IMG/VR virus record: IMGVR_UViG_2585427725_000003
Direction: 5' to 3' (one strand)
Length of the DNA: 27,887 nt
Source: a virus
Taxonomy: Duplodnaviria; Heunggongvirae; Uroviricota; Caudoviricetes
This document shows positions 8,082-27,887 of this stretch, one piece after another. The notes beneath the pieces were generated by a model. It saw only the letters and a program-made list of their open reading frames with translations. It searched no databases and was not told where the DNA came from. Both the position numbers and the translations under genes were made by a program. Position 1 is the stretch's first letter; each line of letters starts with the position of its first letter.

Positions 8082-8085
8082 ATTT

Positions 8086-8160: not shown

Positions 8161-8165
8161 AATAT

Positions 8166-8359: not shown

Positions 8360-8575
8360 ATGAAATCAATGGACAAAATCTCAACTGGCATTGCCTACGG
8401 AACATCCGCTGGTAGTGCGGGATACTGGTTTTTGCAGTGGTTGGATCAGGTCAGTCCATCACAGTGGGCTGCGATTGGGGTGCTTGGAAGCCTTGTGTTG
8501 GGCTTTCTCACCTATCTGACAAATCTGTACTTCAAAATCAGAGAAGACAGAAGAAAGGCTGCGAGAGGTGAATAA
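8360..8575 (+). CDS. S: Holin S, phage-21 pinholin type with dual start (Met1 antiholin / Met4 holin)
   Basis: GGCGGAGG then ATG at 8360: [71 protein letters not shown]. Second in-frame ATG at 8369. Matches S21 from memory. Confidence 0.88.
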
Positions 8576-9072: not shown

Positions 9073-9506
9073 GTAGAGTAACCGTGATTATCTCCGCTCT
9101 GGTTATCTGCATCATCGTCTGCCTGTCATGGGCTGTTAATCATTACCGTGATAACGCCATGACCTACAAAGAACAGCGCGATAAAGCCACATCCATCATC
9201 GCTGATATGCAGAAGCGTCAACGTGATGTAGCAGAACTCGACGCAAGATATACAAAGGAACTTGCTGATGCTAACGCGACTATCGAAAGTCTCCGTGCTG
9301 ATGTTTCTGCTGGGCGTAAGCGCCTGCAAGTCGCCGCCACCTGTGCAAAGTCAACGACCGGAGCCAGCAGCATGGGCGATGGAGAAAGCCCAAGACTTAC
9401 AGCAGATGCTGAACTCAATTATTACCGTCTCCGAAGTGGAATCGACAGGATAACCGCGCAGGTTAACTACTTGCAGGAATACATCAGGACGCAATGCCTT
9501 CGATGA
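9069..9506 (+). CDS. Rz: Rz (inner-membrane spanin)
   Basis: ATG at 9069 overlapping the R stop (ATGA): [26 protein letters not shown]..., N-terminal TM segment then coiled-coil-like region. Confidence 0.85.
9268..9453 (+). CDS. Rz1: Rz1 (outer-membrane lipoprotein spanin) embedded in the +1 frame of Rz
   Basis: ATG at 9268 after AAAGGAA: [36 protein letters not shown]..., lipobox LGVSAC and Pro-rich mature part, entirely inside Rz. Confidence 0.8.
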
Positions 9507-10380: not shown

Positions 10381-10400
10381 AAATTCACCTTTGAGAAAAA

Positions 10401-10952
10401 ATGGCACTCACAGACAAGCAAGAGATGTTCTGTCGCGAGTACCTCATCGATTTAAACGCCACGCAAGCGGCTATTCGGGCGGGGTACAGCGCAAAAACAG
10501 CCAACCGTACCGCATCCGAAAACCTGTCAAAACCTGACATCAAGTTAAGAATCGCCGAACTGAAAGCGCAACGCAATGATCTTGTTGGTATTAATGCAGA
10601 ATATGTACTTAATCGCCTTATTGAAATCGACCAGATGGATGTGCTTGACATTCTCCTGCAAAACGGTGAGCTAAAACCCATTAAAGACTGGCCTAAGGTA
10701 TGGCGCACAACGTTATCAGGAATGGATGTCGTGGAGATGGCATCCGCAGATAGCGCCGCACTTCTGAAGAAAATCAAATGGCCTGATAAGGTTAAAAACC
10801 TTGAGTTGCTCGGGCGTCATGTTTCTGTTCAGGCGTTTAAAGACAATGTCAAAAATGAAGTGACTGGTGCTGACGGAGGACCAGTCAGAACAGAAATTAC
10901 CAACTTAACGCCGGAGCAGGTTGCAGAAGCGTATAGAAAAATGATGGGCTAA
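10401..10952 (+). CDS. Terminase small subunit (P27-family-like)
   Basis: Track ORF, 183 aa, [34 protein letters not shown]..., a typical TerS N-terminus. Immediately precedes terL. Confidence 0.78.
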
Positions 10953-10954
10953 GT

Positions 10955-12577
10955 ATGCCGTTACCATTCCCCTTCGATTTTAAAAATCCTGATTACCAGA
11001 TGGTTTTTGAATGGCGGATGGAACGCTTACAGCGCATTCGCCAGAACCCTGAAATATTGCCAGCACTAAAACAGTTTTACCGAACCAATCCGGCTCAGTT
11101 CATCATCGACTGGGGCATGACAACGGACCCGCGTAATATTGATTATGGCCTGCCGGTGACCATTCCGTTTTTACTCTTCCCTAAGCAGGAGGAGTGGATC
11201 CACTGGATTATGGAACGCTGGAGCAATCGGGAGAATGGTATTACCGAAAAATCCCGTGAAATGGGGCTCAGTTGGACCGCGATCGGACTGGCATGCTCGC
11301 TTTGTCTCTTCAACAAAGAAATGGTTATCGGTTTTGGCTCCCGTAAAGAGGAATACGTCGACAGCACTGGTGACCCGAAAGCATTGTTCTGGAAGGCGCG
11401 CAAGTTCGTGGAAACGCTACCTGTAGAGTTTCGCGGTTCGTGGAGTGAGAAGAAGCACGCGCCATATATGCGTGTTGAGTTTCCTGAAACTGGTGCCGTT
11501 ATCAAAGGCGAGGCTGGCGATAATATTGGTCGTGGTGACCGTACCACGCTTTATCTGGTTGATGAGGCTGCATTCCTTCAGCGTCCTCTGCTGATTGATG
11601 CGGCGTTGTCACAAACGACGCGTTGCCGTATCGACCTGAGTTCAGTTAACGGCATGGCTAACCCGTTCGCTCAGAAGCGTCATGGCGGGAAGATACCGGT
11701 ATTCACATTCCACTGGCGGGATGATCCTCGCAAGGATGAAGAGTGGTATCGCAGGGAATGCGAGAAAATCGATAATCCGGTGGTGGTGGCACAGGAACTT
11801 GATCTGAACTACAGCGCATCAGCGGAAGGCGTCCTGATTCCATCCGAATGGGTACAGGCTGCCGTTGATGCGCATATCAGACTGGGTATCCAGCCAACAG
11901 GCAAACGACTTGGCGCGATGGATGTCGCTGATGAAGGCAGGGACAAAAATGCCTTTTCCACCCGTCATGGCTTCCTCCTGGAAAATGTGCGGGAATGGTC
12001 CGGTGTGGGCAGCGACATTTATCAGTCCGTCGAGAAGGTTTTCGGCTTTTGCGAACAGGACAACCTCGAAGAGTTTCGCTTTGACGAGGACGGGCTGGGC
12101 GCTGGCGTTCGCGGCGATGCACGCGCTATCAACGAACTGCGTAACGCTGCGCGTCGACCGTCAATACTTGCCACACCGTTTCGAGGTAGTGGCGCGGTAT
12201 TTGATCCGGATGATGAAGCTGTTCGCGGGGACAACGGGCAAGCCGCACGTCTGAACAAGGACTTCTTCGCTAACGCCAAAGCCCAGAGCTGGTGGCGGTT
12301 ACGTAAACTTTTTCAGAATACCTGGCGCGCCGTGGTTGAAGGTATGGCTTACAACCCGGACGAAATCATCTCAATCAGCAGTAGCATGGCACTCAAAGAT
12401 AAACTCATCATCGAGCTTTCGCAGCCGACCTATTCCATTAATGGTGTGGGAAAAATAGTTATTGATAAACAGCCTGATGGAACCCGATCGCCAAACCTTG
12501 CCGACTCGGTGATGATCAACTATGCCCCAATGAATTCAGCCCTGAACATCTGGGAGCTGCTAGGGAGACAGGCCTGA
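10955..12577 (+). CDS. Terminase large subunit
   Basis: Track ORF, 540 aa. Walker-B-like LYLVDEAAF; size and position between terS and portal. Confidence 0.82.
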
Positions 12578-14043
12578 TGGCACGAAACAAACAAGCCCTG
12601 CGGCGAACTGCGCAGGCCACAGCTGATGGTTATGAGAATTTTATTGCCCGCGTAGGGATGCAGACAACTAACCAGCACTCAGCATCCACCTACCGGGCTA
12701 ATTTCACCAGTCGTAACCGCATGCTGGTGGAATGGTCCTATCGTTCGTCCTGGATCATCGGCGAAGCGGTCGATGCTATCCCGGATGATATGACCCGCAA
12801 AGGCATTCGCATCACTTCGGAAATTGATGCAAAAGATCGCGGCATTCTCGAATCACAACTGGATGAGTTGCAAATCTGGGATGCGCTGAATGACGTGCTG
12901 AAATGGTCGCGCCTCTACGGCGGCGCGGTGGGTTTCATCATGATTGAGGGGCAGGCACCAATGACCCCGCTGCGACCCGAAACCATCGGTAAGGGCAAGT
13001 TTAAGGGGATTCTCCCGCTCGACCGCTGGATGATTGACCCGGTACTGACCCGCCGCATTAAAGATATGGGGCCGGACCTGGGTAAACCTGAGTTTTACGA
13101 TGTGGTGACCACAGCAACGGGAATTCCTGCCTGGCGCATTCATCACAGTCGACTGATTCGCTTTGATGGCGTCACGCTGCCATTTCAGCAGAAGATGACC
13201 GAGAACGAATGGGGAATGTCGGTTGTAGAGCGTATCTGGGATCGTCTTACCGCGTTCGACAGCGCTACTGTCGGCGCGGCGCAGCTGGTCTACAAAGCGC
13301 ATTTGCGTACCTACAGCGTGGAGAAGCTACGCGAGCTTATCGCACTTGGTGGTCCTGCGTATGAAGCGTTGCTGAAGAATATTGACCTGATTCGACAGTT
13401 CCAGAGCAATGAAGGCATGACTCTCATGGACTCGCGGGATAAGTTTGAAACCCATCAGTACAGCTTCAGTGGTCTGGATGACATCCTTTCACAGTTTGCA
13501 GAACAGATTAGTGGCGCTGTTGGTATCCCACTGGTGCGGTTGTTCGGACAGTCCCCGAAGGGATTTTCTACCGGCGATGCAGACCTTGCCAACTATTACG
13601 ACCGGGTAAGCTCGTTGCAGGAGAGGCGTTTACGTCTTCCGGTGCGGCGGATACTGGACATCATGCATCGTTCGGAGCTTGGCAAGCCGCTGCCGGACGA
13701 TTTCACGTTTGAGTTTAACCCGCTCTGGCAAATGTCTGATGTCGATCGCTCAACGGTGGCGTTAAACACTACCAACGCAATCAGTACAGCGCTGGGTGAT
13801 GGTCTGATGACACTGAAAGCCGCTATGACTGATTTGCGAGAAAATTCTGACGTAACCGGCATCGGGGCATCCATTACCGACGAGGACATAGAGAATGCCG
13901 AAGACGAAGCGCCGCCCGGCATCGGCGAACCTGATGACGAACCGCAGGAACCGTCAGGCGGAAATCCGGTATCGAACCAGCCTACGCAGGATAGCGCGGG
14001 CGGTAGGGGACATCGTAAATGGTCACTACGATGGTTCAAATGA
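12577..14043 (+). CDS. Portal protein
   Basis: Track ORF, 488 aa, directly after terL (TGATG overlap). Acidic disordered C-terminal tail typical of portals. Confidence 0.78.
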   Translation: MARNKQALRRTAQATADGYENFIARVGMQTTNQHSASTYRANFTSRNRMLVEWSYRSSWIIGEAVDAIPDDMTRKGIRITSEIDAKDRGILESQLDELQIWDALNDVLKWSRLYGGAVGFIMIEGQAPMTPLRPETIGKGKFKGILPLDRWMIDPVLTRRIKDMGPDLGKPEFYDVVTTATGIPAWRIHHSRLIRFDGVTLPFQQKMTENEWGMSVVERIWDRLTAFDSATVGAAQLVYKAHLRTYSVEKLRELIALGGPAYEALLKNIDLIRQFQSNEGMTLMDSRDKFETHQYSFSGLDDILSQFAEQISGAVGIPLVRLFGQSPKGFSTGDADLANYYDRVSSLQERRLRLPVRRILDIMHRSELGKPLPDDFTFEFNPLWQMSDVDRSTVALNTTNAISTALGDGLMTLKAAMTDLRENSDVTGIGASITDEDIENAEDEAPPGIGEPDDEPQEPSGGNPVSNQPTQDSAGGRGHRKWSLRWFK

Positions 14044-14668
14044 CAGTATCACGGAAATTATTGAGGCGCTGGAACGCTACAGTGAAATCATCACCCCCTG
14101 GGCGACAAAGGTCGCGGAAAACTTTACCGCCGATATTGTGCGCAAGAATGATGAGCAGTGGCGTAAACACAGCAAAACCATCAGCCGTGAGCTACGCAAT
14201 CTGGTAAACAGTGCCCCGCCAGGGCAGGTGATGAAATCCATCGTTGCTGAACAGGTTAAGTACATTAAATCGCTACCCCTCGAGGCGGCTGACAGGGTGT
14301 ACGACATCCAGAATCGGGCGATTGAAGCTGTTGTGACCGGTGGGAGAGCGGAACATTTTGCTAAAGAAATAGCCGCATCGGGTGATATAGCAAAGTCCAG
14401 AGCTGACCTGATTGCCCGTACTGAACTTGGACGTGCAACCGGCGCGCTGGATCAGGCGCGTGCGCTGGCAATTGGTTCGAATGGTTATATCTGGCGTACA
14501 GCCGAAGATGGTGACGTCAGGCATTCTCATCGGGAAATGGAAGGTAAATTTGTCGAATGGGGCAAACCTCCAACGCTTGATGGCATGACCGGTCACGCTG
14601 GCGAGCTCCCGAATTGTCGCTGTTATAAAGAAATCGTTTTTCCCACCTCCCATTCTTATCCCGCCTGA
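13895..14668 (+). CDS. Head morphogenesis / minor head protein (Mu F / SPP1 gp7-like)
   Basis: Track ORF, 257 aa; ATG at 13895 with GAGGA 8 nt upstream. Position after portal. Overlaps the portal 3' end by 149 nt in another frame. Confidence 0.7.
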   Translation: MPKTKRRPASANLMTNRRNRQAEIRYRTSLRRIARAVGDIVNGHYDGSNDSITEIIEALERYSEIITPWATKVAENFTADIVRKNDEQWRKHSKTISRELRNLVNSAPPGQVMKSIVAEQVKYIKSLPLEAADRVYDIQNRAIEAVVTGGRAEHFAKEIAASGDIAKSRADLIARTELGRATGALDQARALAIGSNGYIWRTAEDGDVRHSHREMEGKFVEWGKPPTLDGMTGHAGELPNCRCYKEIVFPTSHSYPA

Positions 14669-14682
14669 ATCGCAGGTAACAC

Positions 14683-15903
14683 ATGAAATATTTTTTCAAT
14701 ACCCGGCTGGGGGAAACCCGCTATCAGCTGGCTGACGGCTCGTTGCTGTGCAAAGACGTGCCGATAGGACGAACAGGTAAGCAGCTCTATGGTGCTGATG
14801 ACCTGCCAAAACTGAAACCCGATAAGTTCGGTGAAATAGTCGTCACGCGTTCTCCTGAGCAGGTATTCCATCCCGCCACGCTTGCCTCATTCGAAGGAAT
14901 GAGTATCACGGTGTTGCATCCCGAGGATGAAAACGGGGATGTGCGGCTGGTGAATCCAGAGAACTGGAAAGAGCTCGCGGTCGGGCATCTTCAGAATGTC
15001 CGGCGCGGGACGGGTGTGCAGTCTGATTTGATGCTGGCTGACCTTATCGTCAAAGACGAAAACGCCATTCAGCTGATCGAAGATGGCCTGCGCGAAGTGT
15101 CGTGTGGCTATGACGCGGAATATAAGCAGACTGAGCCGGGTAAGGCTGAGCAGGTTGATATTACCGGAAACCATGTGGCTCTTGTCCCTAAAGGCAGAGC
15201 CGGAAATCGTTGTGCAATTGGAGACAGAGACACAATGGCAAATCAAAAGAAAAGCTGGTGGACCCGCATGCGCACGGCCATCAAAACGGGTGACGCTGAC
15301 ACCATGAACGAACTGGTGGAGTCGGCTCCCGCATCGGTTACAGGAGATGAGGGGGATTTGCCGCAGGGCGTTAATCTCAACATCAACCTGTCCCCGCAGC
15401 AACCGCTACCGGACAAAGCACCAGAGATGGGCGGAGGTCCAACGGGCGACAGTGATGATGACCTCAAAACATTACTGAAAGCCCTGCTGGCTAAGCTGGA
15501 AGGAAATGCGACGGGCGATAACGACAATAAGCCTGACGATAATCCGACCGGTGACGGCGAGGACGATGAAGAGGAAACCACGATTACTGGTGACTCAGCC
15601 TGGCGTGCCGAAGTTATCGTTCCGGGTATTGATCTGAGCCGTAAGATGAAACCGACCGCGTTCAAACGTGAGGTTCTGGCTTCTGCTGACAAAACGCTGG
15701 TTCGCCAGATAGTCGGTGATGCGGATATCCGCAAATTGCCGAAACAATCAGTCGACATGGCGTTTAATGCCGTGTCTGAGATTGCCAAAGGGCGAAACAC
15801 CCGCGCCACCACCGGCGATGCACAGCGCCCAAATATGGGCATGACCAGTATCGCTTCCCTGAACAAACAAAACGCTGAATTCTGGGCAAACCGTAAAGGG
15901 TAA
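14683..15903 (+). CDS. Putative scaffolding protein (possibly with N-terminal protease-like domain)
   Basis: Track ORF, 406 aa. Highly acidic, low-complexity central region (GDSDDDL...GDGEDDEEE). Position immediately before the capsid genes. Confidence 0.5.
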   Translation: MKYFFNTRLGETRYQLADGSLLCKDVPIGRTGKQLYGADDLPKLKPDKFGEIVVTRSPEQVFHPATLASFEGMSITVLHPEDENGDVRLVNPENWKELAVGHLQNVRRGTGVQSDLMLADLIVKDENAIQLIEDGLREVSCGYDAEYKQTEPGKAEQVDITGNHVALVPKGRAGNRCAIGDRDTMANQKKSWWTRMRTAIKTGDADTMNELVESAPASVTGDEGDLPQGVNLNINLSPQQPLPDKAPEMGGGPTGDSDDDLKTLLKALLAKLEGNATGDNDNKPDDNPTGDGEDDEEETTITGDSAWRAEVIVPGIDLSRKMKPTAFKREVLASADKTLVRQIVGDADIRKLPKQSVDMAFNAVSEIAKGRNTRATTGDAQRPNMGMTSIASLNKQNAEFWANRKG

Positions 15904-15906
15904 AAA

Positions 15907-16413
15907 ATGAATAATGTATTTCTGTACCGGATGCCTGTTGGCATTGCCGGGGCTGTCTCTCGCCCGCAGGACTTAACCGTCGAACCGGTGGTCCTTAAAT
16001 CCGATAACGCCTTTGCTGCCTATGGGCTGGCTGGTAAATACGATGATGACGGTTTTTTCGTGCCGCTGGCAGATGGTGATACCGCAGACAAGGTGAAGGG
16101 GATCTACGTGCGCCCTTATCCGACCACGTCGCAGCCGGACATGGTTCGCCAGGTGGGAACAGGCAAGAACTTCCCGGGCGACGCAATGAAGCGTGGCTAC
16201 GTGACCGTTAATCTCGGTTCTGATTTTGATGCCAGCACCATCAAAAAAGGCGACCCGGTATACGTTGTCGTCTCCACTGATGAATCCATCAAAGTGCCGC
16301 TGGGTGGATTCATGGCCACGTCAGTCAGTGGCAAAAACGTGGTGCTGACCAACGCTGAATTCACAGGTGCCGGTGATGCTAACGGCAATGCAGAAATTTC
16401 CTGGAAGATTTAA
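15907..16413 (+). CDS. Head structural protein (possible decoration/auxiliary capsid protein)
   Basis: Track ORF, 168 aa, between scaffold and major capsid gene. Function from position only. Confidence 0.4.
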   Translation: MNNVFLYRMPVGIAGAVSRPQDLTVEPVVLKSDNAFAAYGLAGKYDDDGFFVPLADGDTADKVKGIYVRPYPTTSQPDMVRQVGTGKNFPGDAMKRGYVTVNLGSDFDASTIKKGDPVYVVVSTDESIKVPLGGFMATSVSGKNVVLTNAEFTGAGDANGNAEISWKI

Positions 16414-16424
16414 GGAACAGACGA

Positions 16425-17366
16425 ATGATTACTTTTGATCAGGCAACCGTTGACAGCTCTGGTGCCTTTCTCATCGGGGAGCTGGAGCGACTCGACCAGA
16501 CGCTGAACCTGCCACTGGTGGGGTACACCTGGACCCGCGATATCCAACTGCGTGAAGATGTCTCCATCGCAGATGACATTTCCAGCTGGACGAATACCAG
16601 CTTCGCCGCTGCGGGTACTGGTGCAAATCCGAATGGCAAAAACTGGGTAGGCAAAGACTCAACCGCTATTGCTGGCGTGAACGTGGATATCGGCAAATCT
16701 GGTAACCCGCTGAACCTGTGGGGGATGGAACTTGGCTGGACGGTCATAGAATTGCAGGCTGCTCAGCAGGTCGGCCGCCCGATTGATACGCAGAAGTATG
16801 ACGGTATGCAACTGAAATGGCAGATGGATAACGATGAACAGGTATATGTTGGCGATTCCGCATTAAACCTGAAAGGCCTTGTTACCCTGGACGGCGTGCC
16901 TGTCAACAACGCTGCCAAAACGTGGGCAACCTCAACACCGGACGAAATCCGCGCAAGCATTAACCAGGTACTGTCTGATGCGTGGGCCGCTTCCGGTTAC
17001 TCTGTGGTTCCGCGTGATTTGCTGATCCCGCCTGAGCAGTTTGCTCTGTTGTCCAGCATCATCGTTTCATCTGCGGGTAACCAGTCCCTGTTGACGTACC
17101 TTCAGACCAACACCATCAGCTATCACCAGAACGGTATTCCGCTGAATATCCGCGCGGTTAAATGGCTGAAAGGCCGTGGTGTGGGGAATAAGGATCGCAT
17201 GGTTGCGTACACCAACGATAAAAAATACGTCCGCTACCCGCTGGTTCCGCTTCAGAGCGTGCCGGTGCAGTATCGCGGTCTGTATCAGATCGTCACTTAC
17301 TACGGCAAGCTGGGTGCAGTCGAGCCAGTGTACAAAGAAACCATTTCGTACGTTGATGGCATTTAA
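16425..17366 (+). CDS. Major capsid protein
   Basis: Track ORF, 313 aa, following scaffold-like gene and followed by a strong GC hairpin. Assignment from size and position. Confidence 0.65.
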   Translation: MITFDQATVDSSGAFLIGELERLDQTLNLPLVGYTWTRDIQLREDVSIADDISSWTNTSFAAAGTGANPNGKNWVGKDSTAIAGVNVDIGKSGNPLNLWGMELGWTVIELQAAQQVGRPIDTQKYDGMQLKWQMDNDEQVYVGDSALNLKGLVTLDGVPVNNAAKTWATSTPDEIRASINQVLSDAWAASGYSVVPRDLLIPPEQFALLSSIIVSSAGNQSLLTYLQTNTISYHQNGIPLNIRAVKWLKGRGVGNKDRMVAYTNDKKYVRYPLVPLQSVPVQYRGLYQIVTYYGKLGAVEPVYKETISYVDGI

Positions 17367-17373
17367 CAGCCAC

Positions 17374-17394
17374 ATGGCCCCCTGGCGGGGCCAT
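17374..17394 (+). other. Stable GC hairpin 8 nt after the major capsid gene (no U-tract)
   Basis: ATGGCCCC-CTGGC-GGGGCCAT: perfect 8-bp stem, 5-nt loop, followed by TAAGGATG. Confidence 0.5.
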
Positions 17395-17407
17395 TAAGGA
17401 TGACCCG

Positions 17408-17629
17408 ATGGCAAAAAATAATGCAGTAATACACGTACATACCCCGTTTGTGCTCACGCTTCCCGACGGTTCACGGCGCGAGTTTGTTAAAGGCCGTCAT
17501 GCTGTGGAGGAAGACGTTGCCACGCACTGGTTCACTCGTGCGCACGCGGAAGTATCCGTTGGCAAAGCCACAGACGCGCGTAACGAGGTAAAAAATGCCA
17601 AAGAATCAAAGTCTGCCAGCGGTAAGTGA
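17408..17629 (+). CDS. Small hypothetical head/neck protein (73 aa)
   Basis: Track ORF with AAGGA upstream of ATG 17408. Confidence 0.45.
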
Positions 17630-18002
17630 TTTTCGCCGCGACTTCCCGCAGTTTGCTGACCCTGCCAAATATCCCGAAGCGCAAATCCAGTTTCGTCTGA
17701 ATCTGGCCGATGAACTGCTGAGCGAAAACGTCACCGGCAAAAAGTTGTTTCCGTACTTTGCCGGGTTGTTCGTTGCGCACTACATGACGCTCTGGGCGGC
17801 AGACAGCCGGGCGATGCTGGCTGGTGGTTCGGGCGGTTCAACCAATGGTGTTCAGTCCTCAAAGTCCGTGGATAAGGTAAGCGTCAGTTATGACACCAGC
17901 GCGACGCTGAATCCTGATGCAGGTTTCTGGAATAACACCCGATATGGCGCTGAATTTTATCAGTTGATCACGATGTTCGGTGCAGGCGGTCGCCAGCTAT
18001 GA
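17595..18002 (+). CDS. Putative head-tail connector/adaptor protein
   Basis: Track ORF, 135 aa, GAGGT 5 nt upstream. Position in the head-to-tail joining block. Confidence 0.45.
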
Positions 18003-18553
18003 GTTTCAAAAGCGGTGTAACAACGAGGGTGGATAACGCTAAGGCCATTCTGGATGCGCTCAGGTCGTTAACCAAAAAAGATGTGCTGGTCGGCATCCCT
18101 TCGGAAGACAGCGAGCGGGATGATGTTCCGTTTGGTAATGCGGGCATCGGTTACCTCAACGAATACGGCTCACCAGAGCAGAACATCCCGCCACGACCTC
18201 ACCTGATCCCCGGCGTTAAATCGGTAGAGGAACAGACGTTGCCGCAGCTCAAAACAGCGGCGCAGGCTGCGCTTGATGGAAATGCGGCGGGGGCGGAAAG
18301 AGCGCTCAACCGCGCCGGAACGCTGGCCGCTAATGGCGTCAGGCGTTACATGACTATTACCGGCTTTACACCGCTTGCTGATAGCACCGTTGAAGCCCGC
18401 GCGCGTCGAGGGCGTAAAGGGGCGAAAGCGGAACTTGCCCGGCGTGCTGCTGGCGAATCTCCCGGAACCGATCTGGCGAAACCATTAATTGACACCGGGC
18501 AATATCGCAGAGCTATTACCCATGTAGTGAGGGATAAAGATGCCGACTCTTGA
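17999..18553 (+). CDS. Putative head-tail joining protein
   Basis: Track ORF, 184 aa, ATGA-coupled to the previous gene. Confidence 0.45.
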
Positions 18554-18929
18554 TGTAACAGATGTGCTTTTTGACCCCGATTTTTGCGACTTCAATTTGT
18601 GGGTAACACGCCGAGTGCAAACGGTGGATGAGGACGGGATCGGCAGCGACAGCGAAGTTAAAAAGCAGTTTGCCGGAGTCGTAACTGTTGATCGCTCTCT
18701 GGAAAACCGCCGTATGCAGGCAGGGCAGGTAATCAGCGGTGCAATTCTGATTGTGACGACTGAGCGACTGACGCAGGGACAGACTGGCCGTGATGCCGAT
18801 ATCGTGACGTATCAGGGCCGTGATTATCGTGTGACCTTCGTCGACCCGTATACAGCTTATGGTGCCGGATTCGTTCAGGCGCATTGTGAGTTGCTGCCGT
18901 TTGATGGGGGAATTCCGGTTGAGCAATAA
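18540..18929 (+). CDS. Putative head-tail joining / tail completion protein
   Basis: Track ORF, 129 aa, overlapping the previous gene by 14 nt. Confidence 0.45.
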   Translation: MPTLDVTDVLFDPDFCDFNLWVTRRVQTVDEDGIGSDSEVKKQFAGVVTVDRSLENRRMQAGQVISGAILIVTTERLTQGQTGRDADIVTYQGRDYRVTFVDPYTAYGAGFVQAHCELLPFDGGIPVEQ

Positions 18930-19467
18930 CACCAGTACAGAGCGCGGATGGCTGATACCAACCAGTGGCGATCCGGATTATGACGAAGCGCTCGACAGGC
19001 TGTTAAGCCAGTGGATGCGTAACGTTTCCGGTCTGTCTGCCGGGATGGTTCGCCCGCGCTGGCAGAAAGAGCAGCCGCCACTGCTACCGGCTGAAACGAA
19101 CTGGTGTGCGTTTGGGGTTATCGGATGGTCAGGTGATGACAGTCCGGCATTCACCAGACAGACCGATGATGGCTCTAAGCTCTGGCGGCATGAAACGATT
19201 GAGTGTATGGCTTCGTTTTATGGTCCGGCGGGGATGGTGTATGCGTCCCGGTTTCGTGACGGTATATCTGTACCGCAGAACAATGCAGCACTGAATGCGC
19301 TGGGGCTGTCTCTTGGCGATTACACAGGTCTGACCCCCTTCCCTGAACTTATTAATCAGCAATGGGTCCGCCGCTACGATATGACGGTGCGCCTGCGCCG
19401 GAAGGTTGTGCGCGAGTACGGTATTAAATCGCTGGTGGAAGCACCAGTCATCTTTTTCGGAGATTAA
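18904..19467 (+). CDS. Putative tail completion / neck protein
   Basis: In-frame ATG at 18904 within track ORF 18859..19467; immediately precedes the sheath-like gene. Confidence 0.4.
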   Translation: MGEFRLSNNTSTERGWLIPTSGDPDYDEALDRLLSQWMRNVSGLSAGMVRPRWQKEQPPLLPAETNWCAFGVIGWSGDDSPAFTRQTDDGSKLWRHETIECMASFYGPAGMVYASRFRDGISVPQNNAALNALGLSLGDYTGLTPFPELINQQWVRRYDMTVRLRRKVVREYGIKSLVEAPVIFFGD

Positions 19468-19470
19468 GCT

Positions 19471-20616
19471 ATGGCACAGGGCTTGCCTGTATCAAACGTT
19501 GTTAATGTTGATGTGATCATGTCGCCGCGTGCAGCATCAGGGCGAAATTTTGGTGCATTACTCATTCTCGGCCCGTCCACAATCATTCCGGTAAGTGAGC
19601 GCATTCGCCGTTATTCTGCCGCGGAAGATATTGGAAAAGATTTTGGCGTGGAATCACCAGAATATAAGGCTGCGCAGGTGTTTTTCTCACAATCACCGAA
19701 ACCTCAGGAGGTTTTTGTTGGTCGTTGGGTGAAAACGAAGGGTGACAGCGAACAGGCCACGCCTGAGACGCTGGAGCAGGCTGTGAATGCCATGCTCGAT
19801 TATACTTCATGGTATGGGCTGGGGATTGCAGACGATGAAGATATTCCGGATGCAGACTGGCTGAAAGTGGCTGCGGCGATCGAATCCTCTTCTGTAAGCC
19901 GTATTCTGGCGATTACGACAAGCGATGATAAATGCCTGCAGACTGCATCCAGCGATGATTTGGCATCAAAACTGAAAACCGCCGGATATTCACGCAGTTT
20001 TATTCAGTATTCATCGGGTAATAAATACGCTGCGTTATCTGCATTTGGCCGGGTATTCACGGTTAATTTCAATGGCAGTAATACCGCGATTACGCTCAAG
20101 TTTAAGCAGGAGCCGGGTGTCGGGTATGAAACACTGACAGTCAGCCAGGCATCGGCACTTGATGCAAAAAACTGCAATGTATTCGTGTACTACCAGAATG
20201 ATACGGCTATCCTCCAGCAGGGAGTGATGGCTAACGGCGATTTCTTTGATGAACGCCACGGCCTGGACTGGTTACAGAATTATGTGCAGACCAACCTCTA
20301 TAACCTGCTTTATACCAGCACCACGAAAGTTCCCCAGACTGAAGCCGGTATTACCCGACTGTTATCAAATGTTGAAAAATCACTGGATCAGGCCGTTCAG
20401 AATGGACTGATTGCTCCGGGCGTATGGAACGGGGGCGACCTTGGTCAGTTGTCATCAGGTGACACACTGCCCAAAGGTTATTACGTATACGCCCAGCCGC
20501 TGGATGAACAGGCACAATCAGAACGTGAAGCCCGTAAGGCTCCGGTGATTCAGGCTGCAATAAAACTTGCAGGCGCGGTTCATTACGCTGACGTACAGAT
20601 TAATGTTGTTCGCTAA
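19471..20616 (+). CDS. Putative tail sheath protein
   Basis: Track ORF, 381 aa, followed by a 146-aa tube-sized gene, a frameshifting chaperone and tape measure: the canonical sheath-tube-chaperone-TMP order. Confidence 0.55.
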
Positions 20617-20626
20617 GGGGAAGTGA

Positions 20627-21067
20627 ATGTCTACCTATTCTTTTATGGATGTCACTGCGACGCTGACCGGCCCGACCGGTTCGATTGACCTCGGGTACGG
20701 TTCTGCAAGTTCTGAAGAGGGGATTGTGGTTGCGATGGGCGGTCCTAAAAACACCATGACCATCGGTGCTGATGGTGAAGTGATGCACAGCCTCCATGCA
20801 GATAAAAGCGGGACGATTACCGTTAACCTTCTGAAGACATCACCGACAAATAAAAAATTGTCGCTGGCGTATAACGCACAGAGCCAGTCTTCTGCCACAT
20901 GGGGGAATAACGTTATCGTGATCCGCAACAAGGTCAGCGGCGACATCATCACGGCACGCAGTGTTGCGTTCCAGAAACAACCGGATAATGCCAACGCTAA
21001 AACCGGTAATACGATGCCGTGGGTGTTTGACTGCGGCAAGATTGACCAGGTTCTCGGGGAGTTTTAA
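20627..21067 (+). CDS. Putative tail tube protein
   Basis: Track ORF, 146 aa, between sheath-like gene and tail chaperone. Confidence 0.5.
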   Translation: MSTYSFMDVTATLTGPTGSIDLGYGSASSEEGIVVAMGGPKNTMTIGADGEVMHSLHADKSGTITVNLLKTSPTNKKLSLAYNAQSQSSATWGNNVIVIRNKVSGDIITARSVAFQKQPDNANAKTGNTMPWVFDCGKIDQVLGEF

Positions 21068-21070
21068 TAC

Positions 21071-21523
21071 ATGGAGTTCGAAATCAAAGGCGTGAAATAT
21101 CGCGTGGCAAAACTCAGCGTTTTTGACCAACTGAAAGTGACCCGCAAACTTCTGCCGGTGCTGGCAGGAATGATGTCAGATTTCGGGAGCATTCGCTCCC
21201 GTTTGCCTGCTGATGGCAAAATCGACACCGTGAAATTCGAGCAGTTAAAACCGGTGTTTGAAACCATGCTCCCGCGTATCGCTGAGGAACTGTCTTCCCT
21301 GACCGAAGATGACACCAGTGCGATTATTCATCCCTGTCTTGCGGTGGTATCGCGGCGTCATATGGACGGATGGGTTCCGGTATTTACCCAGGGCGAACTG
21401 ATGTTTGATGATATTGACTTGCTGGTCATGCTGCAGCTGGTGGCGCGGGTGGTCGCCGATTCGCTGGGAAATTTTTTGCCTACACCCCTTACCAGCACGA
21501 CGCAGAGCCTGCAACAGGGCTGA
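21071..21523 (+). CDS. Tail assembly chaperone (short, in-frame form)
   Basis: Track ORF, 150 aa, immediately upstream of the tape measure gene; contains slippery heptamer G GGA AAT. Confidence 0.6.
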   Translation: MEFEIKGVKYRVAKLSVFDQLKVTRKLLPVLAGMMSDFGSIRSRLPADGKIDTVKFEQLKPVFETMLPRIAEELSSLTEDDTSAIIHPCLAVVSRRHMDGWVPVFTQGELMFDDIDLLVMLQLVARVVADSLGNFLPTPLTSTTQSLQQG

Positions 21524-21711
21524 CGTTTAACAGCCTGCCGGACGGGCTGTCCTACCTTCTCAATCCGGTTGACGCCGGGTTAATTCCTTATACAGCACTT
21601 AAAGATGGCTCTGTCGATTTGTACGATATTGCTCTTTTGAATGACCATCTGGCGGTAAAAGCGGATAACCAGCGGCGCATTGAGAAATGGAGAGAGGATA
21701 ATGAACGCTGA
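21071..21711 (+). CDS. Tail assembly chaperone, -1 frameshift-extended form (G/GT-like)
   Basis: Slippery G_GGA_AAT at 21466..21472 (zero-frame codons GGA AAT), followed by TTTTTT. The -1 frame is open for about 80 codons (…FFAYTPYQHDAEPATGLTFNSLPDGLSY…RRIEKWREDNER) to TGA at 21709..21711, overlapping the tape-measure start. Confidence 0.6.
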
Positions 21712-23689
21712 AACTATTAAAGATTTCCTCGTCTCGCTTGGCTTCAGTGTGGATGATGCAGGAGCGAAAAAGTTCGGTTCTGTCCTCGCCGGTACAACTG
21801 CAAATGTCATCAAAATGGGGCTGGCCGTTGAAGGAGCCGCGCTGTCCGTGGTGGCCTTCACGGCTAAGATCGCCTCCGGTCTGGATAATCTTTACTGGGC
21901 GTCACAGCGCACTGGAGCGACAGTCCAGGGAATTCAGTCTATTGGCTATGCGGTTTCGCAGGTTGGCGGCAGCGTGGACGCTGCGCGATCTTCTCTGGAA
22001 AGCCTCTCCCGGTTTATTCGTAATAATCCCGGTGCAGAGGGATTTCTGAATCGCCTGGGGGTACAGACACGGGATGCCAGCGGTAACATGCGTGACATGG
22101 CCGCTATTTTTACAGGTGTAGGCCAGAAGCTCAGCGGCATGCCGTATTACCGGGCTAACCAGTATGCGCAGATGCTGGGCATTGACGAAAATACCCTTAT
22201 GGCGATGCGTCGGGGTGTGGGTGGTTTCTCCGGGCAGTACAGCGCAATGGCGAAAGCTATCGGCTTCAATGCTGACGAGGCGGCCAGAAGCTCCAACAAA
22301 TTTATGACCTCCCTGCGTGAGTTTAGCGCGATGGCAGGCATGGCCCGTGACAAAATCGGCTCTAATCTTGCGGGTGGGCTTGCGGGTTCGCTGGACCCCC
22401 TGCGCCGCCATATCCTGGACAACTTCCCTCGTATCGAGCTGACCCTGACGAAAGCCATAAAAGGCATTCTGGCGCTCGGGGATATTATCGGGCGGCTGTT
22501 CTTCAGACTGATTGAAGGAACATCAGGTCTCATCACCTGGTGGCAATCGCTGGATAAGCAAACGCGGCAGTTGATCTCGCTGTTTGGCGCACTGACGATT
22601 GCGCTGCGCATTCTGAACAGTACGTTCTGGATGTCGCCGATTGGCCTTATTACTGCGCTGGCGGCGGGGATTGCCCTTCTGTGGGAGGACTATCAGACCT
22701 GGAAGGAAGGCGGCGACAGCCTGATTGACTGGGGCAAGTGGAAACCGGAGGTCGATGCCGCGTTGAAGATGGTTCGTGACCTTAAAACAACCGTTAACGA
22801 CCTGGCGAAAGCGCTGGCGAAACTGCTCAATATTGACCCCAAATCATGGTCCCTGAAGTGGGATTTCAGCAACTTCATCGACCAGATGGGCGAATTCAGC
22901 AAAATGCTGAACATGATCGCCGACCTGCTCAACGCTATCAAAGATGGCCGCTGGGCTGATGCCGTCAGCATCAGCAAACAGATACTTAATCAGGGCAGCG
23001 AAAATCCGTCAGCGATGCCGATGGTTACAGACAGCGCTAACAGTACTGCCGACTGGATTAAAGAGCACTGGGGATTCGATCCTCGCAGCGTGGGCCGGAC
23101 GGTACGCGGCTGGTTTGGTGATGATGAGCCGGAACAATATGCACAGGCTACGAAACGAGGAGAACGGAATAACAATCCGGGAAACCTTAATTTTGCTGGT
23201 CAGGCAGGGGCTTCTCTTGAACGCCCGGGCGGGCGATTTGCCAGATTTGAAACTGCTTTTGATGGATTACGGGCTCTTGCTCGTCAGTTAATGCTGTACG
23301 CCGGACGGGGAATAAACAGTGTGGAGAAAATTATCTCTACCTGGGCACCTGCGTCTGATAATAACAACACAACTGCGTATATCAGGGCTGTATCGCAACG
23401 ACTGGGAGTGGATCCCCGGGCTGCCCTGAATATGAGCGATCCGCAAACCATGTCAGCATTGATGAGCAGCATTATCCAGCATGAAAATGGAAGAAATATC
23501 TATTCCCGAGAGCTGATTAATAAGGCTGCCGTGGCAGGAATTAGTGGCAAAGTGACAGAGGTTAACCAGCAAAATACCTACCACATTTACGGTGGCGGAG
23601 ATCCGCACGCTGTCGGTAATGAGGTTGCACGTCGGCAACAGTCTGCAAATGCTCAGGTCATGCGAAGTAATCAGGTGAGGGTGGGTTAG
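21701..23689 (+). CDS. Tail tape measure protein
   Basis: ATG at 21701 after GGAGAGAGGA (track start 21680 is TTG). 662 aa, Ala/Gly-rich with internal hydrophobic segments; largest gene of the tail block. Confidence 0.8.
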   Translation: MNAETIKDFLVSLGFSVDDAGAKKFGSVLAGTTANVIKMGLAVEGAALSVVAFTAKIASGLDNLYWASQRTGATVQGIQSIGYAVSQVGGSVDAARSSLESLSRFIRNNPGAEGFLNRLGVQTRDASGNMRDMAAIFTGVGQKLSGMPYYRANQYAQMLGIDENTLMAMRRGVGGFSGQYSAMAKAIGFNADEAARSSNKFMTSLREFSAMAGMARDKIGSNLAGGLAGSLDPLRRHILDNFPRIELTLTKAIKGILALGDIIGRLFFRLIEGTSGLITWWQSLDKQTRQLISLFGALTIALRILNSTFWMSPIGLITALAAGIALLWEDYQTWKEGGDSLIDWGKWKPEVDAALKMVRDLKTTVNDLAKALAKLLNIDPKSWSLKWDFSNFIDQMGEFSKMLNMIADLLNAIKDGRWADAVSISKQILNQGSENPSAMPMVTDSANSTADWIKEHWGFDPRSVGRTVRGWFGDDEPEQYAQATKRGERNNNPGNLNFAGQAGASLERPGGRFARFETAFDGLRALARQLMLYAGRGINSVEKIISTWAPASDNNNTTAYIRAVSQRLGVDPRAALNMSDPQTMSALMSSIIQHENGRNIYSRELINKAAVAGISGKVTEVNQQNTYHIYGGGDPHAVGNEVARRQQSANAQVMRSNQVRVG

Positions 23690-24276
23690 TGGATATTCTC
23701 TCTACACTTTTTCATCAGCAGAGCAGAAAAATAGGAATGATTGTTCCCAGTGTTGTTATTTCAGAGAAGCATACAGATATGCTTGAAATAACAGAGCATC
23801 CGGTAGAGGTCGGGGCTGCTGTCGCTGATCATGCCTATAAAAAACCGTCAGAAGTGGTGATGGAGGTTGGTTTCGCCGGTGGCGGCGCATTGCTGGATTT
23901 TGCCAGTAACCTGACGGCTACCAGCCTGCTCGGCCTGAGTCCTCAGCAGACGTATCAGGAGCTACTGGATCTGCAGGAAAGCCGTATCCCCTTCGATGTG
24001 GTAACCGGTAAACGGCTGTACAGCAACATGTTGATCCGGGCGCTGGAAGTGACGACGGACAAGACAACCGAAAACGTCCTGTCCGCCGTCCTCACCCTGA
24101 GGGAGGTCCTTATCTCCCGGACACAGCAGATCACCGTCGCTGATAAAACCAACATGAAGGAAGGGGCCAGCACGTCGGCGGTACAGAACAGCGGCAACAA
24201 AACCACAAAGCCTCCAGATACTTCACTGCTGAAAAGCATCACGGGTAACGTGGTGTCATTACTGGGAGGCGGATAA
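23689..24276 (+). CDS. Tail / baseplate assembly protein (unknown)
   Basis: Track ORF, 195 aa, GTG start overlapping the TMP stop. Confidence 0.45.
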   Translation: MDILSTLFHQQSRKIGMIVPSVVISEKHTDMLEITEHPVEVGAAVADHAYKKPSEVVMEVGFAGGGALLDFASNLTATSLLGLSPQQTYQELLDLQESRIPFDVVTGKRLYSNMLIRALEVTTDKTTENVLSAVLTLREVLISRTQQITVADKTNMKEGASTSAVQNSGNKTTKPPDTSLLKSITGNVVSLLGGG

Positions 24277-24578
24277 TGACAATTCAGGAAATTCCGCTGA
24301 CAGCGGACAACCAGCAGTTCAGCATCGTCCTGGGTGGTGTCACCTGGCGGATTAGCATCATATGGCGCGATCCTTACTGGATTATGGACCTGCAGAACGA
24401 CAGAGGGGAGCCGGTAATCTCCGGTATACCTCTCGTCACTGGCGCTGACCTGCTGGCGCAGTACGCCTGTATGGGACTTGGTTTTAAGCTGTTGGTGGTC
24501 TGCGATGACAACACACAGGATTATCCCACGAAAACTGACCTGGGCGGGCGCAGTCATTTACTGGTATCAACGGAGTAA
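24276..24578 (+). CDS. Small tail / baseplate protein (unknown)
   Basis: Track ORF, 100 aa, TAATG-coupled to the previous gene. Confidence 0.45.
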   Translation: MTIQEIPLTADNQQFSIVLGGVTWRISIIWRDPYWIMDLQNDRGEPVISGIPLVTGADLLAQYACMGLGFKLLVVCDDNTQDYPTKTDLGGRSHLLVSTE

Positions 24579-24580
24579 GC

Positions 24581-25648
24581 ATGACACAGAACTGGATGAG
24601 ACATTTCGAGCTGCAGCTTGTGGACGGGAACGGTCAGGGAATTGAGCTAAGTGATTTCAAAGTCACCTTTACGATCGACTGGTTCAACATCAGCAGCGCG
24701 TCCCGGGTAGGGACTATCAAAATTTATAACCTCTCGGCAGATACTGTGAACCGAATTACCGGGCAGGAGTTTTCGAAAGTGCGTCTGATTGCGGGTTACG
24801 ACGGTATCGCGCCGGAGGTGTCGGCAAGCGATGTCGGGACCGTGCGGGAGGTTGATGCGGCGGACGTGGGCCAGAGTGATGGCCGCAACTACGGACTGAT
24901 TTTCAGCGGTGAAATTCGCTACTCGGTCACAGGAAAAGACAGCCCGGTTGATTCCTACGTCCTGATTCAGGCAGCCGATACAGATCTGGCTTTTGCCACC
25001 AGTATAACCTCACAGACGCTGGCTGCCGGTTACACGGTCGCTGATGTGAACCGTGCGCTGATGAAAGACTTCGAAGCCAAAGGTGCGACCGAAGGCCTGA
25101 CGCCTGAAATGCCTGCTACTGTATTCCCCCGGGGGCGGGTACTCTTTGGCATGACGCGGCATCTTATGGATAATGTAGCCGGGCAATGTGGCGCAACATG
25201 GCAATTCGTGGATGGTCAACGCCAGATGGTGGCGAATAATGAATATGTTCACGAAGCGATTGTGCTCAACAGCGCTACCGGGCTTATTGGCATGCCGCAG
25301 CAGACTATCGGTAACGGCGTAAACGTCCGCGCGCTTATTAATCCGAACATCCGGGTTAACGGGCTCATTCAACTGGATCAGGCTTCAGTGTATCGTACCG
25401 CGTTGTCGAACAACGATATCGCGATGGCCGGTGGGCAGATCACCGACCAGAACACGGACGGAAATATTACGCTAAGCGGCACCACATCGCAGCCTGCCAG
25501 CATCGCAACGGATGGCGTTTATATTGTGCGTGGGATTATGTACACTGGCGACACAAGGGGGCAGGCGTGGTACATGGATATGATGTGTGAAGCACGTGGC
25601 GCGGCTGATCTACTTTCGTCCTCAGCGCAGCAAAGGATTTATTCATGA
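24581..25648 (+). CDS. Putative baseplate hub / tail protein
   Basis: Track ORF, 355 aa, directly after the preceding tail genes. Function by position and size only. Confidence 0.45.
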   Translation: MTQNWMRHFELQLVDGNGQGIELSDFKVTFTIDWFNISSASRVGTIKIYNLSADTVNRITGQEFSKVRLIAGYDGIAPEVSASDVGTVREVDAADVGQSDGRNYGLIFSGEIRYSVTGKDSPVDSYVLIQAADTDLAFATSITSQTLAAGYTVADVNRALMKDFEAKGATEGLTPEMPATVFPRGRVLFGMTRHLMDNVAGQCGATWQFVDGQRQMVANNEYVHEAIVLNSATGLIGMPQQTIGNGVNVRALINPNIRVNGLIQLDQASVYRTALSNNDIAMAGGQITDQNTDGNITLSGTTSQPASIATDGVYIVRGIMYTGDTRGQAWYMDMMCEARGAADLLSSSAQQRIYS

Positions 25649-25992
25649 AGCGTATGAAGTTAGTTTTGACAATTTCGTTATTATTTTCTTGTTCAGCAGC
25701 TTTTGCTGATTTGCAATGCGGCGGATATCTACTTCATGCAGCTGATAACGGTTGGACAAAAATCAACGGTGAGCAGGTAACATCACAGAAGATTACGTTT
25801 CTTGGTAAGAAAGATGACTGGGACAACGTTAAAACTAACATGGGCCTGATGCCTTCTCGCGATGGCAACAATTACGGCTTTGAGTTTGTGAAGCGTAACG
25901 GAAAAGCTTTCCTGAACGTCCAGCTTCTGCAGAACAGCATGGATGCGCCTAAAATCATCGGATCATTCCCTTGTAAAAAGGCGTTACGCTAA
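25645..25992 (+). CDS. Secreted or lipoprotein-like small protein (115 aa), low-GC moron appended to the tail operon
   Basis: ATGA overlap with the upstream gene stop. MKRMKLVLTISLLFSCSAAFADLQCGG...: N-terminal signal peptide (possible lipobox LFSC or SPase I site AFA/D), two further Cys. Visibly AT-richer than the tail genes. Confidence 0.6.
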   Translation: MKRMKLVLTISLLFSCSAAFADLQCGGYLLHAADNGWTKINGEQVTSQKITFLGKKDDWDNVKTNMGLMPSRDGNNYGFEFVKRNGKAFLNVQLLQNSMDAPKIIGSFPCKKALR

Positions 25993-26029
25993 AGTTTGAT
26001 GTCAATCTTCCGAGATGAGCGCTTTAAGG

Positions 26030-26058
26030 TTGACGAGATATTGTTCAAAGTTCACAAT
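26030..26058 (+). promoter_or_regulatory. Candidate sigma70 promoter for the two-gene cargo module
   Basis: TTGACG (26030..26035), 17-bp spacer, CACAAT (26053..26058), about 30 nt upstream of the ATG at 26088. Confidence 0.35.
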
Positions 26059-26087
26059 CACAATCCCTTTAGTAAGAGAAATAATCC

Positions 26088-26861
26088 ATGGCGGCAGGCA
26101 TCCCATTAGAAAAAGCGCAAAAATATATTGAACAATTCAATGCGCTTCTATTGGATAGGGAAAGTTTAGATCCCTTCACTGAAAAGAAAATTCGAGAGGA
26201 ACTTTCTGTCTCTCCAACGCCTGCTACCAACATTGCACTATCTTATCTGGATGCAATAACCGGAAAGATTGAAAGCGCGTTACGTTATCTCAGGATAAGC
26301 CTAGAAGTAAACGATGTAACGTTGGCAATGCACTATCATCACATTTTAATTAATACATTTAGCTATAATGAACTCAAGGATGTCTATGTCCCGCTGGCAA
26401 AGAAGTATCGGACAAAACTCTTTAGTCACAACGCATACAGTTGGGCGTACCGTTGCGGCGAGCGTGAACAGTTAAAATTTTATATGGAAGAGCACATTAA
26501 GCTTCTTTCTGAATCAGAAGGCAGGAGTAATGCTATGAAGCACAAAGAAGAACTCCTTGCAGAAATGGATAATTTCTATAGCGCCACACAGTGCTCGAAG
26601 GAACAGTTCCAGACCTTAGCATCCATAATCTGGGGCTTGCTAAGTGAATACAAGGCTACGACAGGTTTCGTTCAGCTTAGTGGAAGCGGTTGCTATGTTG
26701 TTGATATTAAAAATCTTGAGCCTAAAACTATTGCCAAAATGAACTTCGACTTGGCTGATAGAGTCTGCGCTGAATCTAAACTGGATGATTGTTCCCTGTT
26801 AGCTAGATTTACCTCTCCGCGTCAGTTGCATACGGGGGTGAGCTACCATGTCGGTAACTAG
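26088..26861 (+). CDS. Hypothetical protein (257 aa), first gene of an AT-rich two-gene module
   Basis: Track ORF. No recognisable motif; specifically no GS...DxD nucleotidyltransferase signature. Its last codons overlap the start of the next ORF by 14 nt. Confidence 0.6.
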   Translation: MAAGIPLEKAQKYIEQFNALLLDRESLDPFTEKKIREELSVSPTPATNIALSYLDAITGKIESALRYLRISLEVNDVTLAMHYHHILINTFSYNELKDVYVPLAKKYRTKLFSHNAYSWAYRCGEREQLKFYMEEHIKLLSESEGRSNAMKHKEELLAEMDNFYSATQCSKEQFQTLASIIWGLLSEYKATTGFVQLSGSGCYVVDIKNLEPKTIAKMNFDLADRVCAESKLDDCSLLARFTSPRQLHTGVSYHVGN

Positions 26862-27129
26862 CAATCAGATTCTCGATACCGCTCGATTATGTCTGTCTGA
26901 AAATATTGAGAGTGGATTTCGAAGCGCTATCTCAAGGGCGTATTACAGTATGTTACATGAGTCTATTAGCTCACTTACTGCCATACCGCATTTTACCCAT
27001 GAGCATCACAAAAATACTGTGGGTTATATGTCAACGCCCTCAGAGTGCAAATCAGAGCCATACCCGACAAATACACTGAAATCCCTAGCTTTCGTACTTC
27101 GCCAGTGGCGGGATGCTAGAAATGAATAG
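26848..27129 (+). pseudogene. HEPN-like protein gene, 3' end interrupted by IS2
   Basis: ATG at 26848 after GGGGGTGA. MSVTSNQILDTARLCLSENIESGFRSAISRAYYSMLHESISSL... contains S-R-AYYSML-H (R-x6-H), resembling the conserved HEPN helix motif as I recall it. The reading frame ends at TAG 27127..27129, which is the first three bases of the IS2 terminal repeat. Confidence 0.5.
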
Positions 27130-27217
27130 ACTGGCCCCCTGAATCTCCAGACAACCAATATCACTTAAATAAGTGATAGTCTTAATACTAGTTTTTAGAC
27201 TAGTCATTGGAGAACAG

Positions 27218-27583
27218 ATGATTGATGTCTTAGGGCCGGAGAAACGCAGACGGCGTACCACACAGGAAAAGATCGCAATTGTTCAGCAGAGCTTTGAACC
27301 GGGGATGACGGTCTCCCTCGTTGCCCGGCAACATGGTGTAGCAGCCAGCCAGTTATTTCTCTGGCGTAAGCAATACCAGGAAGGAAGTCTTACTGCTGTC
27401 GCCGCCGGAGAACAGGTTGTTCCTGCCTCTGAACTTGCTGCCGCCATGAAGCAGATTAAAGAACTCCAGCGCCTGCTCGGCAAGAAAACGATGGAAAATG
27501 AACTCCTCAAAGAAGCCGTTGAATATGGACGGGCAAAAAAGTGGATAGCGCACGCGCCCTTATTGCCCGGGGATGGGGAGTAA
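27218..27583 (+). CDS. insC: IS2 transposase OrfA (InsC)
   Basis: ATG at 27218: [56 protein letters not shown]... (helix-turn-helix), 121 aa. The track start at 27173 is a GTG inside the inverted repeat. Confidence 0.9.
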
Positions 27584-27887
27584 GCTTAGTCAGCCGTTGT
27601 CTCCGGGTGTCGCGTGCGCAGTTGCACGTCATTCTCAGACGAACCGATGACTGGATGGATGGCCGCCGCAGTCGTCACACTGATGATACGGATGTGCTTC
27701 TCCGTATACACCATGTTATCGGAGAGCTGCCCACGTATGGTTATCGTCGGGTATGGGCGCTGCTTCGCAGACAGGCAGAACTTGATGGTATGCCTGCGAT
27801 CAATGCCAAACGTGTTTACCGGATCATGCGCCAGAATGCGCTGTTGCTTGAGCGAAAACCTGCTGTACCGCCATCGAAACGGGCACA
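27541..27887 (+). CDS. insD: IS2 transposase OrfB (InsD) frame, partial; expressed as OrfAB by -1 frameshift at A6G
   Basis: Slippery A_AAA_AAG at 27535..27541 near the end of insC. The -1 frame is open from there to the window end (…[66 protein letters not shown]…). Confidence 0.8.

Follow-up and report, generated by a model that had tools for sequence, protein, structure and literature searches.

HEPN domains are commonly RNase toxins, and in the AF0298-like HEPN-T proteins an aspartate replaces the canonical histidine of the motif at the end of helix 3, with an alternative conserved histidine in an insert between helices 2 and 3 (Anantharaman et al., PMC3710099). The references for this type (PDB 2hsb and 9xbd, Pfam PF05168) are four-helix bundles of about 130 aa that combine the insert and its histidine with an R..RNxxDY-type motif. 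In the HEPN-MNT (HepT-MntA) type VII toxin-antitoxin systems, a small HEPN gene lies downstream of its partner gene and overlaps it, and HepT is AMPylated on a tyrosine beside the arginine motif. Prophage morons and the defence hot spots of P2 and P4 (PMC9122126) offer another point of comparison: low-GC cargo with a terminator of its own occupies a fixed slot in a structural operon and is exchanged there. On the side of the mobile element, IS2 has a left inverted repeat (IRL) of 42 nt, reading 5'-TAG...TTAA-3' on the top strand, and a right inverted repeat (IRR) that ends CA-3' (Lewis et al., PMC3299598). The copy IS2A in yaiX of E. coli K-12 is 1331 bp long, has both of these termini, is flanked by a 5-bp duplication (ATTAC) and breaks its host ORF in two. 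Accessory genes are routinely knocked out by IS2.

The stretch of DNA analysed here (the window; 27,887 nt, IMG/VR record IMGVR_UViG_2585427725_000003) is a lambdoid prophage, with bet, gam, kil and cIII at its start and with a CI-like repressor, NinB, NinG, a Q antiterminator and a lysozyme. Its tail module is of the contractile, myovirus type and resembles those of E217 and Pam3, and its closest relatives among complete genomes share about 98% identity with it across 85-94% of the query. The window is mosaic, a lambda-like early region (1-9500) standing against the E217/Pam3-like tail region (10400-27126). In a variable slot between the baseplate genes lie two genes on the + strand: an intact partner gene of 257 aa (26088..26861) and, overlapped at its start by 14 nt, a truncated HEPN-type gene (26848..27129) that retains 93 of 131 codons and takes its stop from IS2, as seen from the ORF list and from alignment to the loci L001, L002 and L003. 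We consider it highly probable that a complete IS2 inserted between codons 93 and 94 of this gene, duplicated ATGAA and so left a null HEPN allele in a prophage cargo module, as a recent single event. The insertion as such is a real and ordinary knockout of a prophage accessory gene by a well-known element, and it resembles IS2A in yaiX in element length, termini, size of duplication and the splitting of the host ORF; unlike there, the target is a prophage cargo gene, at a site occupied by IS2 in 0 of 5426 complete E. coli genomes.

The element was compared with the annotated IS2A mobile element of K-12 MG1655, which starts at L004:2261 with TAGACTGG. When window positions 27100-27887 are aligned to it, 760/761 bases are identical from 27127 to the end, and similarity is absent 5' of that position; the window letters from that position on are TAGACTGGCCCCCTGAATCTCC..., so that the IRL start 5'-TAGACTGG is present at the junction. 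The IRL itself (27127..27168, +; 42 bp, starting TAGACTGGCCCC) is placed by the alignment together with the published description, and because the two agree (PMC3299598) the boundary falls at 27127 and the stop codon TAG (27127-27129) is the first triplet of IS2, bases 1-3 of the left inverted repeat. The first-pass annotation had named the element, its boundary and the origin of the stop in just this way, and on each point the alignment bears it out. IS2 bases 1-761 of 1331 occupy 27127..27887 (+), the window end falling within the element, and the transposase genes run in the same orientation as the prophage late genes. They comprise orfA (insC; 27218..27583, +, positioned from K-12 insC1), a helix-turn-helix transposase component matching Pfam HTH_Tnp_1 at E 1.9e-19, and the 5' part of orfB (insD; 27541..27887, +, positioned from K-12 insD1), which is cut by the window end; an A6G slippery site, AAAAAAG, lies in the orfA/orfB overlap at about 27535-27541. 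The orfB part is one base apart from K-12 and otherwise identical, the sole difference from IS2A being C instead of A at window position 27732 (IS2 position 606).

The other end of the element lies beyond the window. From the K-12 copy, the right junction was predicted to read GGGGCAAATCCA followed by ATGAA and GCTGACTATGATC, and this prediction is matched exactly in a further IMG/VR contig, UViG_2585427725_000002 (L013), which reads ...GGGGCAAATCCA|ATGAA|GCTGAC. Reverse-complemented, L013 is identical to the window over the terminal 287 bases of the latter (287/287), and the variant base at IS2 position 606 falls within this overlap, which ties the window and L013 to the same IS2 copy or lineage; we infer that the two contigs, though separate, come from the same genome. 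Merged, they give an element of 1331 bp that is identical to IS2A at 1330/1331 positions and ends GGGGCAAATCCA, in agreement with an IRR that ends CA-3'. The left copy of the 5-bp target-site duplication, ATGAA, is at 27122..27126, and its right copy follows the IRR in L013. The far end of IS2 and the 5-bp duplication, which the first-pass annotation had left to be found downstream, are thereby in hand, and the uninterrupted gene can be rebuilt from its flanks: removal in silico of IS2 and one ATGAA yields a 131-aa ORF that is identical to the BH100N allele over 396/396 nt. The left junction also occurs in the independent assemblies L005, L006, L007 and L014, which include a Logan contig common to 8 samples, two ENA metagenome contigs and a second IMG/VR genome. 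The junction of gene and IS2 is absent from all 5426 complete E. coli genomes searched, and none was found among the GTDB species representatives searched for it. IS2 matches in the 5426-genome search that reach 12-27 nt past the end of the element were taken as chance among about 22,000 copies. On the reverse strand of L013, at about 5185-5023, the lost 38-codon frame stays open into the IS2 IRR, starting from GTG (VITDVWKYRGKSNEADYDL...); the resulting fusion of IRR and C-terminus, about 52 aa long, is a putative ORF that exists on paper only.

The IS-free state is well represented. The 1127 bases 5' of the junction are found in 27 of the 5426 complete E. coli genomes, as a single chromosomal copy in each case, and the gene is uninterrupted in every one of these carriers (27/27). 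The alleles of BH100N, KOr019 and TB06051 match the window through the GAA at 27124-27126 and then continue GCTGACTATGATCTG...; IS-free alleles thus part from the window immediately after that codon, where they read GCTGACTATGAT..., and the intact 131-aa protein of these three strains ends ...ARNE-ADYDLTNVTVSKEMGQDAIEAAELYFERWEQLKSAR(V/A)S. By comparison, the product of the window ORF has 93 aa and ends ...LRQWRDARNE. The insertion thus falls between E93 and A94, with 38 aa lost and none added, and the earlier statement that the native C-terminus had been replaced needs rewording: it is gone, as claimed, but nothing stands in its stead, so that it was deleted rather than replaced. The in-frame TAG at the tip of IS2 is not remarkable; in this orientation it is expected in one insertion frame of three, and an insertion in either of the remaining frames would be read on for 5 or 16 codons.

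Assignment of the gene product to the HEPN domains rests on indirect routes, since scans of the 93-aa and 131-aa proteins against Pfam, NCBIfam and PADLOC gave no match. A family profile built from 26 homologues matches the structures PDB 9xbd/9xbc, described as 'HEPN domain-containing protein' (9xbd, E 3.9e-6), and PDB 2hsb (AF0298, a UPF0332 HEPN; E 2.5e-3), in each case over nearly the full length. Among ten sampled distant relatives, seven match the Pfam HEPN family PF05168, four of them above the gathering score. An AF2 model of the homologue P0001 (89% identical; pLDDT 90.7) has helices at 5-17, 21-42, 53-62, 74-96 and 105-130, and its best Foldseek match is again 2hsb (prob 1.00, TM 0.57), the next matches being HepT toxins and the sacsin HEPN domain with weak E-values. 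The label 'HEPN-like' is therefore justified by transitive homology and fold, and the evidence supports a predicted AF0298-like HEPN-T domain, in which four helices form a bundle and helices 2 and 3 are separated by an insert.

The details of the motif point the same way. Alignment of the 26 homologues reveals a near-invariant RDARNEADY, in which R88-x6-D95 and R91-x4-Y96 stand out; its counterpart in the alignment to PDB 9xbd is RNrSDYDL. It sits where the Rx4-6H motif would be, at the end of helix 3, has no histidine within it and is accompanied by a conserved H53-H54 in the helix 2-3 insert. Motif and modelled helix layout agree with the published AF0298-like HEPN-T pattern, and the protein shares with the references its length of about 130 aa, its fold, the aspartate in place of histidine and the histidine of the insert. 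Unlike them, it escapes direct Pfam detection, has about 20% identity to 2hsb and is found on prophages of Enterobacterales.

It is against this motif that the site of insertion has to be read. The cut falls inside it (RDARNE|ADY), near the end of core helix 3. Only the first half, R88-D-A-R91-N-E93 (27109..27126, +), is retained, along with the first two helices, the insert and the greater part of helix 3, including H37, H53 and H54. A94, D95, Y96 and all beyond are lost, including core helix 4 (about residues 105-130) and its conserved A115, F119, W122 and K126. Because the cut splits the conserved motif and removes the last core helix, inactivation is very likely, and from alignment and model the allele would be a null; a fragment that keeps R88, R91, H53 and H54 might, formally, still bind some RNA. 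The suggestion that the insertion may be neutral if the catalytic helix is intact consequently looks unlikely.

As to mechanism, a 1331-bp IS2 would have transposed into codon 93/94 of the 131-codon gene and duplicated ATGAA; because the left end of IS2 begins with TAG and landed in frame, translation should stop at once and give a 93-aa product free of foreign residues, which the split motif and the missing helix 4 would leave unable to fold or act. By analogy with HEPN toxins and abortive-infection systems, the intact HEPN protein may be the effector, acting as an RNase, with the upstream protein as regulator or sensor. The insertion looks like one event carried by a single lineage, most simply an accessory gene lost with neutral or mildly beneficial effect. 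It can be called recent because the flanking sequence is the same as in intact alleles and the tail genes beyond it remain open: in L013 these are genes for a spike (250 aa), a 117-aa protein, baseplate J (399 aa) and a DUF2612 protein (226 aa), and the tail-fibre and assembly genes are open as well.

Natural homologues give little room for a shorter functional form. Nearly all of the 28 homologues from Enterobacterales and Aeromonas have 131-132 aa (for a few of them the source gives the label 'HEPN domain-containing' or 'UPF0332'), the profile of PHROG 5176, of unknown function, aligns over 1-131 of its 132 positions, and an exhaustive profile search returned 1350 representative relatives at E<=0.001, of which the best 150 are mostly about 120-140 aa long and align from end to end. 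Among the 28 homologues and these best 150 of 1350 relatives, none that is called at full length stops close to residue 93, so that the reading of the gene as truncated withstands the comparison in which natural endings at this residue were sought. One apparent short form, P0023 (86 aa), was rejected as a gene-caller start artefact over an intact ORF. In two JGI metagenome loci (L011, 3001-3261; L012, 2189-2449) the homologue is called from an internal methionine as an 86-aa protein over a complete and open 131-codon ORF, and database entries of this kind may mimic truncated alleles. A further short entry, P0011 (119 aa; L010, 3001-3360, contig JARCCX010018519.1 of GCA_029782595.1), has lost 36 bp in frame, and with them precisely the conserved motif, QWRDARNEADYD; as an independent knockout it was judged unreliable, several genes on the same contig being broken, and the deletion may be an assembly error or the mark of a decaying prophage instead of a second targeted knockout.

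Several other accounts of the junction can be envisioned. There is next to no chance that it reflects an assembly artefact, a chimeric join at a repeat or a natural gene end: the window does end inside IS2, as short-read contigs commonly do, but both junctions were recovered from independent assemblies with matching 5-bp duplications and an exact 287-nt overlap, and homologues run to 131-132 aa. With the reciprocal junction and the target duplication found, an artefact of assembly is excluded. It is also highly improbable that the 93-aa product still functions; R88, R91, H37, H53 and H54 all lie upstream of the cut, which is what such a view would build on, yet D95, Y96 and the entire fourth core helix with A115, F119, W122 and K126 are gone, no full-length-called homologue stops near residue 93, and the short entries that were checked proved to be start-calling artefacts. 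Accepting a complete IS2 and a very likely null allele leaves the matter of why the allele exists. The first-pass annotation had proposed that the insertion may have inactivated or attenuated a toxic product, as is often seen for toxins without cognate control. Its first half, inactivation, is very likely right. Its second half amounts to positive selection, with IS2 rescuing the host from a poorly controlled HEPN toxin, a reading that finds no support and that we regard as unlikely even though HEPN domains are commonly RNase toxins (PMC3710099), the cut strikes the most conserved motif, the insertion allele is found in several samples and isolates, and the L010 allele also lacks exactly the motif residues QWRDARNEADYD. 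Against these points stand the general breakage of the L010 contig, the fact that all occurrences share one site and one IS2 variant and so amount to a single insertion event, and the distribution of the gene: it is intact in all 27 complete genomes and in many other Enterobacterales, always with its conserved upstream partner, and for that reason does not behave as a toxin without control.

A different account would make the truncation incidental, the consequential effect being that IS2 cripples virion production from the late operon and so domesticates the prophage. IS elements are classically polar, and this one stands between the baseplate genes on one side and the spike, baseplate J and tail-fibre genes on the other. 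The prophage nonetheless encodes a Q antiterminator, and an intrinsic terminator occupies the same place even in IS-free alleles; since those alleles carry one there, late transcription must already read through terminators. Domestication through polarity is on this evidence quite improbable as the explanation, and a polar effect on the tail genes beyond the element may come on top of what we continue to read as a single, recent IS2 knockout of the HEPN gene.

The modest interest of the locus lies only in the uncharacterised module of TPR-like and HEPN-T genes that IS2 has struck. The 257-aa partner has a TPR-like helical repeat at its N-terminus followed by a small alpha/beta C-terminal domain (model pLDDT 91.7), and its fold matches TPR proteins only. 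Family scans and fold comparison gave no nucleotidyltransferase match or signature, and the partner likewise has no Pfam, NCBIfam or PADLOC match and falls only in PHROGs of unknown function. Neither the HEPN protein nor the partner is matched in PADLOC-DB 2.0 at E<=10, no accession match for either appears in the accessible part of the DefensePredictor supplements, and the literature consulted holds nothing relevant on PDB 9xbd/9xbc or on any prophage system that combines TPR and HEPN. The two genes stand side by side in every locus read, both families recur in the same genera, and the pair is found at 41-49% identity, in a different genomic position, in the Klebsiella phage ST405-OXA48phi1.3. 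There the two-gene module (L008, 4280-5396; MK416008) lies upstream of the tape-measure gene, and its HEPN homologue is an intact 131-aa ORF over which the record annotates two small CDSs.

With HEPN-MNT the module shares a small HEPN gene downstream of, and overlapping, its partner, as well as a conserved tyrosine at the place that corresponds to the AMPylated tyrosine of HepT; it differs in its 257-aa TPR-like partner with no nucleotidyltransferase signature and in the absence of the canonical Rx4-6H histidine. Its GC content is 41.9% against 53.1% for the structural genes, a strong terminator hairpin follows it, and a sigma-70-like site (TTGACG-17-CACAAT; 26030..26058, +; L001 4031-4059) precedes it as a consensus match only, of a kind whose number in the region is not above shuffled expectation. 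Related prophages match only up to about window position 25979, and the 41-bp terminator region alone is matched in 23 complete genomes. In E. coli E308 the slot that separates the spike gene from the 115-aa gene, corresponding to window positions ~25993-27126 together with the missing 3' part, contains a DUF2335 gene (L009, 2915-3487) in place of the TPR-HEPN pair; from the terminator hairpin on, which both have in common, the sequences are homologous again. The slot looks like a hot spot of cargo exchange in the baseplate module, and because of its distinct GC content, its terminator and the replacement by a DUF2335 gene, the two-gene module is, as far as composition and gene order indicate, moron-type cargo and not a canonical HEPN-MNT pair. 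The resemblance to morons and to the P2/P4 hot spots extends to low GC, the terminator, the fixed slot in a structural operon and exchange of contents; unlike those hot spots, this slot belongs to the baseplate region of a lambdoid prophage whose tail resembles those of E217 and Pam3, and its content has no PADLOC match.

It is possible, and we advance it tentatively, that the TPR-like 257-aa protein and the AF0298-like HEPN-T protein form an undescribed two-gene prophage system of a defence or toxin-antitoxin-like kind, in which a TPR sensor or regulator replaces MNT. If so, the IS2 allele would be a natural knockout of the effector and would indicate tolerance of the partner on its own. Carrier strains survive although their HEPN gene is broken and the partner gene is whole; this speaks against the HEPN protein being an antitoxin on which containment of the partner depends, and it fits a role of HEPN as effector. 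For a widespread module that pairs a TPR-like protein with a divergent HEPN domain, the allele should offer a clean natural null with isogenic intact alleles at hand.

Some further observations concern the annotation and surroundings of the module. In the RefSeq records of BH100N (L001, 4849-5244) and TB06051 (L003) the intact 131-aa HEPN ORF is missing from the annotated features, leaving a gap between the 257-aa gene and the spike gene; a near-identical gene is annotated in KOr019 as WP_042108964.1. Upstream of the pair, at 25645-25992 (+), the window encodes a 115-aa protein with a signal-peptide-like segment at its N-terminus (MKRMKLVLTISLLFSCSAAFA...), which belongs to phrog_3443 and has a GC content of 42.5%. 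This gene is retained in prophages with different downstream cargo and may be a separate moron.
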